Notes under the pieces: model-generated
The model's database searches: none
What the model was told of the DNA's origin: nothing
The model's input: only the letters and a program-made list of their open reading frames with translations
DNA from: a virus
Lineage: Duplodnaviria; Heunggongvirae; Uroviricota; Caudoviricetes
Length of the DNA: 7,280 nucleotides
Reading direction: 5' to 3' (one strand)
IMG/VR virus record: IMGVR_UViG_2700989509_000014
Part shown: positions 880-6,891 of the stretch, piece after piece
How positions within the stretch are numbered: position 1 is the first letter of the stretch
Layout: every line of letters begins with the position of its first letter
Position numbers and translations under genes: made by a program

Positions 880-1039
880 GGCAGCAACGAGCTGCTGTTT
901 AAATTCGGGAGGATAATTAGGGCAGCCTTTTCGCCTGCCGGGAGTCACATTTTTCTGCATATCTGATACTTTGGTTCCCACTACTTATTTGGTGGACACC
1001 ACTTTGTCTAATTCGTCAGATTCTGACCAGACGGTTCAG

Positions 1040-1055
1040 GCTGTACGCTTACGGA
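1040..1055. repeat. 16-bp direct repeat gctgtacgcttacgga, copy 2 (possible solo IS66-type terminal repeat or remnant)
   Basis: Exact match to 864-879, 176 bp further right, in non-coding DNA between the IS and the prophage cassette. Confidence 0.6.
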
Positions 1056-1162
1056 TGAAGGTGATGGGGCAGGGATCAGAATTGCGTGGTGTAGCAAGTT
1101 GTATCTATCAATTTTCAATAAATACAATTGGTTATGTGTTTTTAGGTGGAGCGATCGTGAGG

Positions 1163-1189
1163 CAAAGAAAACCCGGCGCGGTGGCCGGG
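1163..1189 (-). terminator. Rho-independent terminator closing the minus-strand two-gene cassette
   Basis: On the minus strand: CCCGGC-caccgc-GCCGGG (6-bp GC stem, plus coordinates 1172-1189) followed directly by TTTTCTTT (plus 1164-1171). It starts about 15 nt after the stop codon of the 1205-2134 gene. There is no T-tract on the plus-strand side, so it is unidirectional. Confidence 0.65.
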
Positions 1190-1204
1190 CTGAAGGGGCT
1201 CATT

Positions 1205-2134
1205 CTAATCGATTGATTTAATATCCCATTGAGGTCGAGAAACCAGAGTGTATCTGGGCTTGCCCTTACCAACAGTTTTTTTCAGGAACGTGGCTGTTGC
1301 AACGCTTCCTAAGTGCTTGTTTATAATATCTGGGTCATCTACAGCTTTGTCAATGCTAGCGGTTCTGATATCAGTGTTACCTAAAACTATAAATTCACAT
1401 TGGCGCTTGTTAGGAAGAGTTCCCAAAAATATAACGTTCTCAATAATTTTTTCCTGCTGAATGTTATCATTGCTGAGATGTTGATATACAGCTTCAAGCT
1501 GTTTTGGCTCTCTAAAAACGATGCTAAAACCTTGGCTTTTAAGTGTAAAAACTGTTTTATTTTCATGCAGATAATGAATGAATGCTCTGATTTTATCTAA
1601 GGCCCGAGAGTCTAAGTTTTCTATAGCATCAGACAATTCTTCATCATCATTATCCAAGCTTGCCTGAAATATTTTTCTGGCCTTATTAATAGCTTTTGCT
1701 ACTGGGGTTTCTTCATCGAATTCAAGAGGAGCATCAGGTCTAAACTCTTCAAGTACGAATCCGAAAGAACCACGGGCTGACGCGGTAATCATGAGATGAT
1801 TATTTTCTATGTTTGGTATCTTGCCTGATGCAGGAAGTGGGCCATTGAAAGAGGTTGCCAAGTAAGCTATTGCATCATTAAAACAAGATATAGCTTTTGT
1901 TCCAAATACTGCTGAAATGCCATGCGTGCCAACTACTGTTGGGCCTCTAAAAGTTAACACAGCATGCGTAGGTTCATGTTCTCGAACGTCAGCTTGTGAA
2001 ATTAATCGCTCAACTTTCTCCAGACGGTCTTCTAAGCTTTTTCGGCTAATAGAATGACTTGTTGGCATATTTTTTAATAGATTACTTATTTGCTCGCGCT
2101 CACTGAGAGCGAAAACATAATCATTACGATTCAT
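1205..2134 (-). CDS. Hypothetical protein, 309 aa; distal gene of a two-gene cassette downstream of cI; candidate defence/exclusion component, function unknown
   Basis: Long ORF with ATG at 2134 preceded by GAGGGGG 7 nt upstream on the minus strand. Its start overlaps the stop of the upstream gene by 4 bp (ATGA). AT-rich (about 33% GC in a sampled 60-mer). Ends just before an intrinsic terminator. No Walker motif, no obvious transmembrane segment, no family I can name. A weak R-x6-H string (RAFIHYLH) is noted but not relied on. Confidence 0.75.
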   Translation of the reverse strand: MNRNDYVFALSEREQISNLLKNMPTSHSISRKSLEDRLEKVERLISQADVREHEPTHAVLTFRGPTVVGTHGISAVFGTKAISCFNDAIAYLATSFNGPLPASGKIPNIENNHLMITASARGSFGFVLEEFRPDAPLEFDEETPVAKAINKARKIFQASLDNDDEELSDAIENLDSRALDKIRAFIHYLHENKTVFTLKSQGFSIVFREPKQLEAVYQHLSNDNIQQEKIIENVIFLGTLPNKRQCEFIVLGNTDIRTASIDKAVDDPDIINKHLGSVATATFLKKTVGKGKPRYTLVSRPQWDIKSID

Positions 2135-2709
2135 TGTTTGACCCCCTCAGTAGTAGCCGAATTAAGTATAGTCATTGCCACAACATCAAGTTGTGGGTTT
2201 AACGGGATTTGGATAAATCCCTTCCACGACAGATCGCGTCTATGTGCCCACATACTGTACCAGTATACAGTCATTTCAACAAGCTCATGACTTGGTAGAT
2301 TAAGTTCTTGGAAGTAGGAATCTACGAAAAACTCCTTCTTAACAAAATCATGATCAAATAGCTCTGGCTTTCTACCGATTACGATTGCATCATTATCGCC
2401 ATTACTGAATTGAAAAAAGGTCACAACATCGACATCATTCGGTGGCCTTTTTTCAATAAGTTCAATATGTTCTGTGAAGCTTCCATCTACCCACTGAAAA
2501 CCTTCAACTAGCCCTGCTTGAGTGAGTGAAACACGAAAGTTAAGAAAACCCTTAAGGATTTTAATCCTTGCAGGGCTAAGCGAAAAAGTACTAACAAAGC
2601 GTACTATATCCATTTTGTATGGGGAACGAGTATGGCTTGTAGGATCAGCCTCGTCTATTGGGGGGATTAACCCCATCTCATTCCATAGAGAGACAGTTGG
2701 TATACTCAA
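2131..2709 (-). CDS. Hypothetical protein, ~192 aa (TTG start at 2709; alternative ATG at 2676 gives 181 aa); proximal gene of the cassette; possible nucleotidyltransferase-like fold, tentative
   Basis: ORF with TTG start preceded by AAGGT 5 nt upstream on the minus strand; the internal in-frame ATG at 2676 has a weaker GGAA signal. Contains W-V-D-G-S-F, then 15 residues, then D-V-D-V-V, which resembles the hG[GS]…DhDh signature of Pol-beta-type (minimal) nucleotidyltransferases; this is pattern resemblance only. AT-rich. Lies 114 bp downstream of the cI stop on the same strand. Confidence 0.7.
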   Translation of the reverse strand: MSIPTVSLWNEMGLIPPIDEADPTSHTRSPYKMDIVRFVSTFSLSPARIKILKGFLNFRVSLTQAGLVEGFQWVDGSFTEHIELIEKRPPNDVDVVTFFQFSNGDNDAIVIGRKPELFDHDFVKKEFFVDSYFQELNLPSHELVEMTVYWYSMWAHRRDLSWKGFIQIPLNPQLDVVAMTILNSATTEGVKQ

Positions 2710-2823
2710 TGCTTAACCTTTATAACGAACTGAATATTCGGCAAAATATTGTTTTTAGGTATTGGCTGCTGTGCTTGTCGGACGGTTATTTCGTGTCACC
2801 CAAACGTTTCTTCTGGCCACTGG

Positions 2824-3531
2824 TTACCAGCTATGTGATGACCAGAATACTCTGCCAATAATCCTTACTGTTTCATGAAACTCATCTCTATCCATTACTT
2901 CATCAGGGTACTCTTCGCGATTTATTGATCTGATTATCACGGATGTAGGTGTGGCTATTAATGTCTTTACTCTTAGTAAATCAGATTGACAAATAGCGTA
3001 GGTTTTACCATCTCTGATGGTGGTGTCTTGCGTGTTGACTCCAACAACATCACCATCGTGAAGGGTTGGCTCCATGCTTTGGCCTATCACCCTAACCAGC
3101 TTGGCAGAGCTTTCAGATACCCCCATCTTTTTCAGATAGTACTTTCTGAAAACCAAAGAGAACTCAGATGATTCCTCTAACTCACAGCTACCACTCCCGG
3201 CGGAAAGAGAAACATTAAGAAGAGGCAATGCGACAAACTCGTCATCGTTTCTTTTTATGTCCTCCCATACCACCGCTTTTAAAGATGACTCACGCACATT
3301 CGATGGCTCTTCATGTGCACCATCCCTCATTTCACCAATACCTGAGCTAAGCCATTCAGGGCGTACTTTTAAAGCATTGGCTAACTCAACCATCTTTCGA
3401 GATCCGTTTGTTTTACCGGATGACATCTTCTGTATGGCTGGCTGAGATATTCCAACCATGTCAGCAAGCTGTGATTGTGACACCCCTGCTGAGCTCATGG
3501 CTGCATTTAGTCTTTCTGCGAATGTTTTCAT
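2824..3531 (-). CDS. cI: Phage CI-like repressor (N-terminal HTH, C-terminal S24/LexA-type autopeptidase), 235 aa from ATG 3531
   Basis: HTH segment SQSQLADMVGISQPAIQKM. Ala-Gly candidate autocleavage site (LSAGSG). Ser nucleophile in GQSMEP and a downstream Lys (LLRVKTL), as in LexA/CI S24 peptidases. Divergent from a cro-like gene across an operator region. The ORF track starts at a TTG (3561), but that extension would overlap operator site 1; the ATG at 3529-3531 (MKTFAERLN…) is the more likely start. Confidence 0.85.
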   Translation of the reverse strand: MKTFAERLNAAMSSAGVSQSQLADMVGISQPAIQKMSSGKTNGSRKMVELANALKVRPEWLSSGIGEMRDGAHEEPSNVRESSLKAVVWEDIKRNDDEFVALPLLNVSLSAGSGSCELEESSEFSLVFRKYYLKKMGVSESSAKLVRVIGQSMEPTLHDGDVVGVNTQDTTIRDGKTYAICQSDLLRVKTLIATPTSVIIRSINREEYPDEVMDRDEFHETVRIIGRVFWSSHSW

Positions 3532-3543
3532 ACCCACAAATCT

Positions 3544-3606
3544 ATAACTACGGTTATCCAAAGTAAAATAACAAAGGTTATTGCTATTTTTTATAACTTG
3601 AGTTAT
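3544..3606. promoter_or_regulatory. Tripartite operator (OR-like): three perfect ATAAC-N4-GTTAT palindromes between the divergent cI and cro genes; overlapping pRM/pR-type promoters inferred
   Basis: Exact sites ATAACtacgGTTAT (3544-3557), ATAACaaagGTTAT (3568-3581) and ATAACttgaGTTAT (3593-3606), spaced 24 and 25 bp start to start, like lambda OR3-OR2-OR1. Candidate rightward promoter TTGCTA (3581-3586), 17-bp spacer, TATCTT (3604-3609), or alternatively a -10 TATAAG at 3614-3619. Candidate leftward -10 is TATAGA on the minus strand (plus 3541-3546). Promoter hexamers are guesses; the palindromes are exact. Confidence 0.65.
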
Positions 3607-3642
3607 CTTTGGTTATAAGTAATGTCCACAAGAGGTATGCTC

Positions 3643-3867
3643 ATGAATTTAGTAATTCAACGAGCCTTGAAAATTGTCGGTAGCCAAAAGCGCCTTGCCG
3701 ACAAGTGTGGTGTAACGCAGCCAGCAGTACATAAATGGCTGAAAGGCGGGTTGGTCTCTCCAGAGAAAGTTACCGCCATCGTTAACGCCACAGGAGGGCA
3801 GATCAAGGCTTACGAAATCCGCCCAGATTTGCCACACCTGTTTCCAAAACCGAATCAGGCAGCATAA
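3643..3867 (+). CDS. cro: Cro-like small HTH regulator (YdaS/Cro family), 74 aa from ATG 3643
   Basis: First rightward gene opposite the repressor. HTH-like segment QKRLADKCGVTQPAVHKWLKG followed by AIVNATGG, which resembles YdaS/Cro-type proteins. AGAGG at 3631-3635 sits 7 nt before ATG 3643; the upstream in-frame ATGs at 3622 and 3637 lack a properly spaced RBS. Stop TAA at 3865-3867. Confidence 0.65.
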   Translation: MNLVIQRALKIVGSQKRLADKCGVTQPAVHKWLKGGLVSPEKVTAIVNATGGQIKAYEIRPDLPHLFPKPNQAA

Positions 3868-3874
3868 GTAACAC

Positions 3875-3909
3875 CGCTCTTTATCAATCTGCACCGCCGA
3901 CAACGCGGT
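3875..3909 (+). promoter_or_regulatory. nutR-like antitermination site: boxA-like CGCTCTTTATCAA followed by a boxB-like hairpin
   Basis: CGCTCTTTA (3875-3883) matches the boxA core (GCTCTTTA / CGCTCTTA). Ten nt downstream is the hairpin ACCGC-cgacaac-GCGGT (3893-3909), a 5-bp stem whose loop contains GACAA, which I recall as the P22-type boxB loop. It lies immediately 3' of cro and 5' of cII, where nutR sits in lambda and P22. Confidence 0.5.
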
Positions 3910-3973
3910 AACTAATTAAGCGCTCATCGAAAGATGGGTATTAGTGATTATTTACCTATGGAAATAGTAAGAA

Positions 3974-4273
3974 ATGGAACAAACAAGTTACAGCAAACTA
4001 TCACAGCGCGACGTTGATCGCGCAGAAACAGATTTACTCATCAACCTGTCAACGCTTACACAGCGCGGTCTGGCAAAGATGATTGGCTGTCATGAATCGA
4101 AGATAAGCAGAACGGACTGGAGATTTATTGCTTCGGTCTTGTGTGCTTTCGGAATGGCATCAGACATCAGTCCGATTAGCAGGGCTTTTAAGTATGCGCT
4201 TGATGGACTCACCAATAAAAAACGCCCGGTGTGCAAGACCGAGCGTTCTGATCAAATACAAATGGAATTTTAA
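3974..4273 (+). CDS. cII: CII-like transcriptional activator (lambda CII homolog), 99 aa
   Basis: C-terminus LTNKKRPVCKTERSDQIQMEF closely matches the lambda CII C-terminus (…ILTNKKRPAATERSEQIQMEF); a central HTH-like segment is present; position after cro/nutR is canonical. Stop TAA at 4271-4273. Confidence 0.8.
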   Translation: MEQTSYSKLSQRDVDRAETDLLINLSTLTQRGLAKMIGCHESKISRTDWRFIASVLCAFGMASDISPISRAFKYALDGLTNKKRPVCKTERSDQIQMEF

Positions 4274-4295
4274 CAACATCCAACGAGGTAATTAT

Positions 4296-4568
4296 ATGCG
4301 AAACAAAGGCTTTAATCCACCTGATACACACAAAGAAGCTAAGCGTTTGCGCTTCCTTCGTTCCATTGATGAAAGAACTCAAATCTCTTTTGTGAAAGTT
4401 GCCAGAACTGAGCTTCTGAAGGCTGAGGCGAGGGCGTTGCTCCCGTCTCTACCAAAAGAGGAGGGATATACGTCCATTCCAAACGCATTTCTGGAAAAGC
4501 TGCTCAAAGAAGACATATCCGTAAGTCAGTTTAACGATGTTCTTAAGGTCTTTCGTCAAGGCAGGTAG
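4296..4568 (+). CDS. Small hypothetical protein (90 aa) between cII and the O-like gene
   Basis: ATG at 4296 preceded by GAGG (4285-4288) with a 7-nt spacer; ends with TAG at 4566-4568, 2 nt before the O-like start. The ORF-track entry 4128-4568 is the same frame extended upstream across cII and is not the real N-terminus. Basic and charged, no recognisable motif. Confidence 0.55.
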   Translation: MRNKGFNPPDTHKEAKRLRFLRSIDERTQISFVKVARTELLKAEARALLPSLPKEEGYTSIPNAFLEKLLKEDISVSQFNDVLKVFRQGR

Positions 4569-4570
4569 TT

Positions 4571-5518
4571 ATGAGCAATACAGCAAAAATCTACGATTTC
4601 AGCGCCGCACACGAGCGCAGGAGCAACAGGATGGAGAACCAGAAAACTGGTTACATTCCGTTGTACCGGAGCATTCTGAAACAGTCATGGGCGAAAGATG
4701 TTTATCTTCGCACCCTGTGGGAAAACCTTCTCCTGAATGCCGCCAGAAAGCCATACAAAGCGAATTTCAAAGGTCATGAATGGCATCTGCAACCCGGTCA
4801 ACTGGTTGTGACAGCAGCTGATTTAGGTCTTCAGTTATGCGACAGGCATGGCAAGCCAGCAAGCCGCGATCAGGTTGAGCGGATGCTTCAGGTTTTTGTG
4901 AAAGAGGGGGTGATCACCATTGATGGAGAGAAGCAAAAAGGTCGTGTGATTACCATCACAAATTACCATGAATATGCTCAAAAAATGGACGATTCACCCG
5001 CACATGAAGCCGCACAAACAACCGCACATGATGCCGCACATGACGAAGCCAGCAATGGCGCGGCTTTCAGAGTACATGCCGCACATGAAAGCGCACATGA
5101 AGCCGCACAAACAACCGCACATCATGAACAAGAAGGTATTAACAAGAATATAAATAATACCCCCCTACCCCCCAATGGGGGAGGCGATGGGCAGGTTAAA
5201 CCTGAACGTCGCAAGGCAGAACGAATCGACTACGAATCCTTCCTGAACGCCTACAACACCGAAGTCGGTGGCAGACTTCCACACGCTGTTGCGGTCAACG
5301 AGAAACGCAAACGCCGCCTGAAGAAAATCATCCCGCAACTGAAAACGCCAAACGTGGACGGTTTCAGAGCGTATGTCAGGGCGTTTGTACATCAGGCCAA
5401 GCCGTTTTACTTCGGAGACAACGACACGGGCTGGACGGCTGATTTTGATTACCTGCTGAGGGAAGACTCGTTAACGGGAGTTCGGGAAGGGAAGTTTGCA
5501 GACAGGGGGATTGCATGA
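4571..5518 (+). CDS. Replication initiation protein, lambda O-like N-terminus with a conserved phage replication-protein C-terminal region, 315 aa; carries the origin iterons internally
   Basis: N-terminus [11 protein letters not shown]… parallels lambda O (MTNTAKILNFG…). A His/Ala-rich linker is encoded by the iteron repeats. Directly followed by, and overlapping by 4 bp with, a DnaB-family helicase gene (P22 gene 18 / gene 12-type arrangement). Confidence 0.75.
4998..5181. repeat. Putative phage origin of replication: iteron array, AT-rich tract and C/G palindrome inside the O-like gene
   Basis: A 31-bp perfect direct repeat cgcacatgaagccgcacaaacaaccgcacat at 4999-5029 and 5092-5122. At least eight copies of the 10-mer (c/g)cgcacat(g/c)a between 4998 and 5123. 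Then an AT-rich stretch (5125-5159, …aacaagaatataaataata…), then C6-TA-C6-AAT-G5 (5160-5181). The organisation mirrors ori-lambda, which also lies inside O. Confidence 0.6.
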
Positions 5519-6891
5519 AACAGGATATCGAAGCGAGCGTTATCGGTGGCCTGCTGATTGGTGGATTAACACCAACTGCCAGTGACGTTCTGGCAACGCT
5601 GGAGCCGGAAGCGTTTTCAATTCCGCTCTACCGGAAAGCCTTCGAGGTTATCCGCAAGCAGGCGCGAAACAGAAACCTAATCGACGCGCTGATGGTTGCC
5701 GAGGCGTGCGGAGAGGAGCATTTCACGTCAATCCTGATGACCAGTAAGAACTGCCCGAGTGCCGCAAACCTGAAGGGATATGCCGGAATGGTCGCGGATA
5801 ACTATCACCGCCGCCTGGTGCTGGAAATCATGGATGAAATGCGTGAACCAATTCAGAGAGGAACCATCGATACATCGAGTCAGGCGATGGACGAGCTTGT
5901 AAAGCGTCTTTCAGCCATCAGAAAGCCCCGTGACGAGGTTAAACCTGTACGGTTAGGGGAAATCATCACTGACTACACTGACACGCTTGACAGGCGCCTG
6001 AGGAACGGAGAAGAGTCAGATACCCTGAAGACCGGAATCGAAGAACTTGATGTCATCACCGGAGGGATGAACGCGGAAGACCTGGTGATTATCGCCGCTC
6101 GTCCTGGTATGGGGAAAACCGAACTGGCGCTGAAGATTGCCGAAGGTGTGGCAAGCCGCGTTATTCCTGGTTCTGACGTCCGGCGCGGGGTATTGATTTT
6201 CTCAATGGAAATGAGCGCATTGCAGATTGCAGAGCGAAGCATTGCCAACGCCGGGAGGATGTCGGTTAGCGTGCTGCGAAATCCTGCATCGATGGATGAC
6301 GAAGGCTGGGCGCGTGTTGCTAACGGCATGAGTCAGCTTGCAGATTTGGATGTATGGGTAGTCGATGCCTCGCGGTTATCGGTCGAAGAAATACGCTCAA
6401 TCGCAGAACGGCACAAACAGGAAAATCCAAACCTGTCACTCATCATGGCGGATTATCTTGGCCTGATTGAGAAGCCGAAAGCAGACCGCAACGACCTCGC
6501 AATTGCTCACATCTCCGGAAGCCTGAAGGCGATGGCGAAAGACCTGAAAACGCCTGTTATCTCCCTGAGTCAGCTTTCGCGCGATGTTGAGAAGCGACCA
6601 AACAAACGCCCGACAAACGCAGATTTGCGTGATTCAGGAAGCATTGAGCAGGACGCAGACTCAATCATCATGCTCTATCGGGAAGCGGTATATGACGAGA
6701 ACAGTAGCGCCGCACCATTTGCTGAAATCATTGTGACAAAAAACCGTTTTGGCTCGCTTGGTACGGTTTACCAGCGGTTCTGCAACGGACACTTTGTTGC
6801 ATGTGACCAGGATGAAGCCAGAAAGATTTGCACAGCATCAAATGCACCCGCTGCACGTGGCAGACGATATGCACAAGGGGCTGACGTATGA
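5515..6891 (+). CDS. Replicative DNA helicase, DnaB family (phage-encoded), 458 aa
   Basis: Walker A in [11 protein letters not shown], Walker B-like [10 protein letters not shown], and DnaB C-terminal motifs ([40 protein letters not shown]). DnaB-like N-terminal domain (…[11 protein letters not shown]…). ATG 5515 overlaps the O-like stop (ATGA). Confidence 0.9.

Follow-up and report, generated by a model that had tools for sequence, protein, structure and literature searches.

The DNA analysed here is a stretch of 7,280 nucleotides (nt), hereafter the window, from the Caudoviricetes virus record IMGVR_UViG_2700989509_000014, and our subject is a two-gene cassette, orfA and orfB, within it. 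Beyond an insertion sequence (IS) remnant at its left end, the window covers the region of a lambdoid prophage that governs immunity and replication. The cassette lies between the gene for a cI-type repressor and the Timm region, on the cI strand, that is, at the location that rexAB occupies in phage lambda. An original prediction, based on base composition, had marked positions 1205-2709 as a horizontally acquired AT-rich unit, and this interval corresponds exactly to orfA and orfB. The comparisons described below indicate that it is an exchangeable cargo module in the cI-to-Timm slot of this prophage, coding for a predicted nucleotidyltransferase (NTase) and a partner protein. The slot and its borders contain the following features:

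1071-1204, minus strand: conserved Timm region, bordering the cargo slot on its left, assigned by homology to the mEp332 Timm and to lambda.
1170-1191, minus strand: predicted intrinsic terminator hairpin, found in a terminator scan, at a position that agrees with the annotated mEp332 Timm.
1205-2134, minus strand: orfB, 309 amino acids, the partner protein, outside all Pfam families.
2131-2709, minus strand: orfA, 192 amino acids, a DUF6932 protein with a Pol-beta-type nucleotidyltransferase signature.
2710-2823, minus strand: cI-orfA spacer of 114 nt.
2796-2822, minus strand: relic of a lambda-type cI 3' end, comprising the last 8 codons and the stop codon (QWPEETFG-stop), found as a BLAST match.
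2824-3561, minus strand: cI-type repressor with helix-turn-helix and S24 peptidase domains (Peptidase_S24, 3e-17; HTH_3; phrog_4).

The borders of the slot can be traced by comparison with other phages and prophages. Over the left flank (1071-1189), the window shares 84% identity with lambda 35709-35824, which lies immediately past the end of rexB, and the Timm region is 91% identical to the annotated mEp332 Timm. The block 1073-2822, comprising Timm, orfB, orfA and the spacer, is also present in further prophages of E. coli, with an identity of about 98%. The immunity genes of those prophages differ from the ones in the window, as they code for a lambda-type cI of 237 amino acids and a lambda-type Cro, and their replication modules vary between a toprim primase-helicase, O/P and O/DnaB. 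The shared block ends at 2822, together with the 27-nt relic, which matches the 3' end of both lambda cI and the CE10 cI and sits just past the stop codon of the cI that the window itself encodes, which is a different one. This relic marks a recombination junction, at which the immunity module was swapped with a breakpoint at the extreme 3' end of cI. A comparison with related phages carrying other cargo at this site had been suggested, and such cargo was found between the same flanks: rexAB in lambda, gene 04 in mEp332 and a 173-amino-acid open reading frame (ORF) in strain SMN197SH3. The shared block, the cI relic and the alternative cargo directly demonstrate modular exchange at a recombination-bounded slot. 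The cassette also resembles a moron in the sense of Hendrix, as it is kept or replaced between common flanks and has a different composition; of a promoter and a terminator of its own, only the terminator, the shared Timm, was found. The earlier description as a horizontally acquired moron is therefore borne out by the mosaic evidence, although composition alone does not single out the cassette.

OrfA matches the Pfam family DUF6932 (PF22014) with 93.6 bits (cutoff 27) over profile positions 3-141 of 142, and the CE10 copy is labelled 'DUF6932 family protein' in RefSeq; NCBIfam yielded no match for OrfA. Residues G76-S77, D92-x-D94 and D130 are invariant across 44 diverse OrfA homologues. In the AlphaFold2 model (mean predicted local distance difference test score, pLDDT, 89.3), G76-S77 are placed at the end of the strand 69-75, the DxD motif on the strand 93-100 and D130 on the strand 129-135. 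OrfA thus has the motif order of the Pol-beta superfamily, namely hG[GS] after strand 1, DxD on strand 2 and a third carboxylate on strand 3, and is predicted to be a small DUF6932 enzyme with a nucleotidyltransferase signature. In addition, it possesses conserved extensions at the N-terminus (IPxWN...RSPY) and the C-terminus (YWYSMWxHRR...WKG). Gene callers disagree on the start of orfA, which is placed at TTG 2709 (192 amino acids) or at ATG 2676 (181 amino acids). The longer form is preceded by an AAAGG Shine-Dalgarno sequence and keeps the IPxWN motif, whose Pro7 is present in 96% of 71 homologues; the 181-amino-acid calls probably truncate the protein.

No match for OrfB was found in Pfam or NCBIfam, nor in PADLOC at an E value below 0.1, and searches of both proteins and their profiles against the PDB sequences gave nothing, or spurious repeat matches (PPR, BAG). 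The OrfB model (pLDDT 86.5) starts at its N-terminus with a hairpin of helices, which is followed by a small alpha/beta domain and a helical segment, and ends in an OB-like beta-barrel. The alpha/beta domain carries a GSFGF loop, in which G122-S123 are invariant and F124-G125-F126 are found in at least 90% of the members. The best-conserved positions are mostly Gly, Phe and Pro, with S123, R37, R177 and E247 as the only polar ones. Among the PDB structures, no whole-chain counterpart was found, and only the C-terminal barrel of about 70 residues resembles OB-like domains such as those of SilF and PriB. A fold search in BFVD returned three full-length matches with E values of about 1e-10, all uncharacterised viral proteins, one of which is labelled DUF6575. 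The DUF6575 domain appears among newly validated defence domains (PMC9519451); as none of the OrfB relatives matches DUF6575 in Pfam, this link stays a lead. Both OrfA and OrfB are predicted to be soluble and acidic, with a maximum 19-residue hydropathy of about 1.1 and no hydrophobic segment, which rules out OrfB as a RexB- or HalA-like membrane protein. OrfB was also rejected as a HEPN protein: it has no conserved Rx4-6H motif (no conserved His follows R177 or R183), and its fold is a mixed alpha/beta one with a barrel and not a helical bundle.

The two genes are found together well beyond E. coli. A profile search with OrfB returned 1468 clusters at 50% identity, all of about 300 amino acids, and a scan of one genome per species gave 77 loci (some counts below are based on 76 or 73 of them). 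The scan was run with alignment A1, so that the motif GSFGF[VI]LEE is invariant in this set by construction. The 77 loci come from Proteobacteria, Planctomycetota, Acidobacteriota, Cyanobacteria, Spirochaetes and Bacteroidota, and in three cases from Methanomicrobiales archaea. Of these loci, 73 extend far enough upstream of orfB for its neighbour to be seen, and in 72 of them the next gene upstream is a DUF6932 gene on the same strand, at a distance of -10 to +23 nt. The distance matrices of OrfA and OrfB are correlated (r=0.90, matched by 0 of 2000 permutations), and the partners from Proteus, Burkholderia and a planctomycete are homologous to OrfB (hhalign E values of 1e-52 to 1e-60). At the level of sequence comparison, OrfA and OrfB thus behave as a strictly syntenic, co-diverging pair. 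The flanks have a higher guanine plus cytosine (GC) content than the pair in 74 of the 76 loci, with a mean difference of 8.2 points (Wilcoxon p=2e-13), which makes AT-richness a family-wide trait of a mobile unit.

Among 5426 complete E. coli genomes, the pair is present in 8, and a diverged version in a further 26; the two E. coli variants share about 67% nucleotide identity over an alignable DUF6932 stretch of about 470 nt. A gene for a CI-type repressor precedes the pair in E. coli (both variants), Citrobacter, Proteus and Providencia. In the Proteus and Providencia prophages (L012-L014, L019), a small DUF3024 gene, which is absent from the E. coli versions, lies between cI and the pair. 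At other loci, the genes next to the pair include those for integrases, resolvases, type I methylases, defence reverse transcriptases, DpdF, Avs3 and IS605 TnpB. The archaeal loci (L021-L023, from Methanogenium, Methanomicrobiaceae and Methanoculleus nereidis) contain the same pair with an OrfB that is 35-38% identical; in M. nereidis, a gene for a type I HsdM methylase is located immediately upstream of the pair, and in the Methanomicrobiaceae metagenome-assembled genome the pair is two ORFs away from IS605 TnpB. The presence of the pair in methanogenic archaea implies inter-domain transfer. The identical OrfB protein occurs in 1356 blocks of a contig collection and is located inside a prophage in all eight loci examined. 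A literature search for DUF6932, PF22014, the RefSeq accessions or the pair found nothing, although an earlier characterisation under another name is possible.

The signals around the two genes suggest that they are expressed as one unit with the repressor. The stop codon of orfA overlaps the start codon of orfB (ATGA), and orfA contains a GGGGG Shine-Dalgarno sequence for its partner gene, so that the two genes are predicted to be translationally coupled. A terminator hairpin with an 8-bp stem, 6 GC pairs and a U-rich tail follows 14 nt past the orfB stop codon; its RNA fold has a free energy of -19.8 kcal/mol, which is only z=-1.7 relative to shuffled sequences. No promoter-like or terminator-like site was found on the minus strand of the 114-nt cI-orfA spacer, and the one weak promoter-like site within cI (2961-2933) has 9 of 12 matches, which is chance level. 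The corresponding cI-rexA spacer of lambda has a length of 112 nt. Based on the spacer without such signals and the analogy with lambda cI-rexA-rexB, co-transcription with cI from the promoter pRM is most likely. The cassette is probably not an independent transcription unit but part of a cI-orfA-orfB-Timm unit, in which it would be embedded in the same way as rexAB.

The remaining features of the window are:

about 1-1060: ISEc8 (IS66-family) remnant, with the C-terminus of the transposase at 15-839 on the plus strand.
3543-3607, strand-neutral: oR operators, three copies of TATAACnnnnGTTATC with start-to-start spacings of 24 and 25 nt.
950-4600, strand-neutral: AT-rich compositional domain with 41.8% GC, containing Timm, the cassette, cI, oR, cro and cII up to the start of O, taken from the best segmentation by the Bayesian information criterion (BIC).

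The operator copies start at 3543, 3567 and 3592, and give 9 strand-matches where 0.33 are expected; left of the cassette, no copy of TATAACnnnnGTTATC is present in the window. oR is the expected site of pRM and pR and the presumed origin of the cI-orfA-orfB transcript. Since the TTG at 3561, the start of the mechanically called ORF, falls beyond oR3, the true start of cI is probably the ATG at 3531, which yields a repressor of 235 amino acids (MKTFAERL...). On the plus strand, oR is followed to the right by cro, cII and the genes for an O-type initiator and a DnaB helicase. The O gene contains two clusters of 12-nt-periodic repeats (CCGCACATGAAG-like) at 4986-5140, which encode a repeated peptide and are probably the iterons of the replication origin. 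At the other end, the ISEc8 remnant directly adjoins the Timm region, and the oL operators, pL and the N gene are absent from the place where intact relatives carry them, about 450 nt past orfB. The left arm of the prophage is therefore truncated or disrupted, with the cI-orfA-orfB unit intact.

We also re-examined the compositional argument on which the original prediction was built. Its three sampled 60-mers are reproduced, with GC contents of 33.3% (1441-1500), 56.7% (61-120) and 48.3% (6001-6060). The value of about 33% given for the cassette applies to the sampled 60-mer, which is a local minimum, but not to the cassette overall, whose mean over 1205-2709 is 39.3% (orfB: 38.5%, and 29.0% at third codon positions, GC3; orfA: 40.6%, GC3 34.7%). 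At a scale of 1.5 kb, it is the most AT-rich part of the window, with a sliding minimum of 38.9% at 1259 (the cassette itself ranks 152nd among 5776 positions). That it is AT-richer than the IS and the replication genes was stated correctly: O plus dnaB have a GC content of 51.7% (Fisher p=6e-14) and a GC3 of 53.7% (p=2e-15), and the left flank 1-1070, which holds the IS, has 55.6% GC (p=3e-16). Similarly, two host genes, taken from related loci, have a GC3 of 56.8% (p=6e-23). The GC and codon-usage check that had been called for thus sets the cassette apart from O plus dnaB, the IS and host genes, but not by GC from the adjacent cI, which has 43.2% GC (p=0.08, not significant) and a GC3 of 39.0% (p=0.04). 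The shift is accordingly not limited to one transcription unit, as had been claimed, since cI is nearly as AT-rich. When the window was segmented by dynamic programming, with model choice by BIC, none of the models, which had up to eight segments, placed a break at 2709-2823. A three-segment model had the lowest BIC; its breaks fall at about 950 and 4600, and its segments have GC contents of 56.8, 41.8 and 50.9%. It is hence the whole immunity region that forms the AT-rich domain, with a sharp left edge at the IS/Timm border, whereas the right edge of the cassette is not sharp. Within this domain, the intergenic region with oR has 21.7% GC, and cro and cII have 45-49%. As rexA (40.2%), rexB (42.5%) and cI (45.2%) of lambda are similarly AT-rich (P: 53.4%), the profile of the cassette is normal for a lambdoid immunity region. 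The composition shift is genuine, but it was overstated and does not by itself delimit the cassette.

We propose that the cassette is a superinfection-exclusion or abortive-infection module expressed in the lysogen, a reading that we infer from the above and hold with about even confidence. According to this model, the module would be transcribed with cI from pRM in the lysogen and transcription would end at Timm. OrfA would be the enzymatic component, which could nucleotidylate OrfB, an RNA or another target, or could make a small nucleotide product, and OrfB might act as sensor, regulator or effector. In this view, the AT-richness reflects the history of the pair as a horizontally mobile unit. 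A more far-reaching possibility, which we put forward tentatively and with considerable doubt, is that DUF6932 and OrfB constitute an uncharacterised minimal-NTase immune system that has spread horizontally across bacterial phyla and methanogenic archaea and has repeatedly taken the repressor-linked RexAB slot in enterobacterial prophages. Such a system would act via a partner fold that is absent from the solved structures, with an OB-like barrel and a Gly-rich GSFGF loop, and by a mechanism unlike those of CBASS, HEPN-MNT, AbiE/MenT and Hailong.

Several points weigh against an exclusion function. OrfB of the window reaches no PADLOC model, including that of PDC-M63B, the larger component of the defence candidate PDC-M63AB, and it offers no catalytic clue because its conserved residues are mostly Gly, Phe and Pro. 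Deletion of PDC-M63AB in E. coli NILS69 had no effect for 10 virulent phages (bioRxiv 10.1101/2024.12.20.629700); the instance tested is prophage-borne and a distant relative, and the experiment is the only published test of any relative of the cassette. Outside the Enterobacterales, the neighbours of the pair are heterogeneous and include the housekeeping genes for LepA, KARI and PheS. A tblastn search of 50,697 sequenced phage records returned no OrfB homologue, which leaves prophages and chromosomes as the only known locations of the module. The term defence island used in the original prediction goes beyond these data: the window holds one two-gene candidate, whose relative gave no defence against those 10 phages.

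The main rival to the exclusion reading is a toxin-antitoxin (TA)-like addiction module that stabilises the prophage. In this case, the pair would resemble the type VII HEPN-MNT systems, OrfA would neutralise OrfB by nucleotidylation, perhaps at S123, and there may be no primary role in exclusion. We regard this as unlikely, since OrfB has neither the conserved Rx4-6H motif nor the all-helical bundle of HEPN proteins, no TA or HEPN/MNT model is matched in Pfam or PADLOC, and both proteins exceed the typical size of TA partners. The reading also overlaps with that of abortive infection, as many TA systems are defence systems. The pair might instead serve lysogenic conversion or counter-defence, for example with an NTase that modifies a host molecule for the benefit of the lysogen or that protects the prophage on induction. 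The morons of lambdoid phages encode many types of function, and the lack of a defence phenotype of PDC-M63AB and the location of some loci among housekeeping genes would fit such a role. However, the occurrence of the pair in many phyla and in archaea, and in integrase, restriction-modification and reverse transcriptase contexts, argues against a host-specific conversion function, and the cassette occupies the classical exclusion slot; we therefore judge conversion to be quite improbable.

A further alternative concerns the composition and not the function. The low GC content could merely be a regional trait of lambdoid immunity regions, caused by AT-rich regulatory DNA, silencing or mutational bias, and the cassette could be an old resident of the phage lineage. 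The missing composition break between the cassette and cI and the same profile in the cI-rex region of lambda agree with this explanation. It is nevertheless largely refuted, and in our view very unlikely, given the exact mosaic borders at 1073 and 2822 with the cI relic at the junction, the presence of the same block beside a different immunity and replication module, and the AT-richness of the pair relative to its flanks in 74 of the 76 unrelated genomes.

Taken together, the composition shift alone is textbook behaviour of a lambdoid immunity region and adds little. Of more consequence is that the cI-to-Timm slot is a recombination-bounded cargo site, which is here occupied by a strictly conserved two-gene unit, and that this pair is represented in public data by approximately 1,500 clusters at 50% identity from Bacteria and Archaea, with the larger protein outside Pfam. 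Should the pair indeed act in exclusion, a new NTase-based mechanism would be added to those known, and there would be reason to search the slot next to the repressor in temperate phages for defence genes expressed in lysogens.

Several known systems share one or the other property with the cassette. In the HEPN-MNT type VII TA systems, the partner is a HEPN protein, which OrfB is not by fold or motif, and the MNT (minimal nucleotidyltransferase) proteins of about 100-130 amino acids are without the conserved N- and C-terminal extensions of OrfA. No PADLOC or Pfam model for AbiE/MenAT DUF1814, the CD-NTases of CBASS (cyclic oligonucleotide-based antiphage signalling systems) or Hailong HalB is matched by the cassette proteins. 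CD-NTases possess a second helical domain, which is absent from the 192-amino-acid OrfA; the Hailong protein HalA is a channel, whereas OrfB is predicted to be soluble, and OrfB is also unlike any known CBASS effector.

A closer likeness exists to PDC-M63AB, which is itself only a computational candidate. OrfA and its relatives match PDC-M63A with E values from 2e-10 (OrfA) to 2e-15, and the architecture is the same, with a small A protein followed by a B protein of about 300 amino acids; the PDC-M63B profile also has 309 positions. Some OrfB relatives match PDC-M63B with E values down to 6.7e-7, namely, and weakly, 8 of 71 family members and the Burkholderia copy. The OrfB proteins of the other E. 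coli, Proteus and planctomycete loci are, like that of the window, without a match. As A and B do not both match their hidden Markov models, the pair is related to PDC-M63AB but not callable as a member; because OrfB misses the PDC-M63B model, we place the cassette in a sister branch, which PADLOC v2 would fail to call.

The system most similar in genomic setting is RexA-RexB of lambda. No sequence or fold relation exists between the two, and no Rex match was found in PADLOC, Pfam or PHROGs. The cassette has no counterpart of RexB, which is small, polytopic and membrane-bound; conversely, RexAB lacks an NTase signature, which OrfA possesses. Similar to rexAB, however, the cassette is a two-gene unit in the same orientation in the same cI-to-Timm slot, next to a homologous Timm flank (84% identity), after a spacer of similar length and with a similar AT-richness, and it is by analogy with rexAB that expression of the cassette in the lysogen would be expected.

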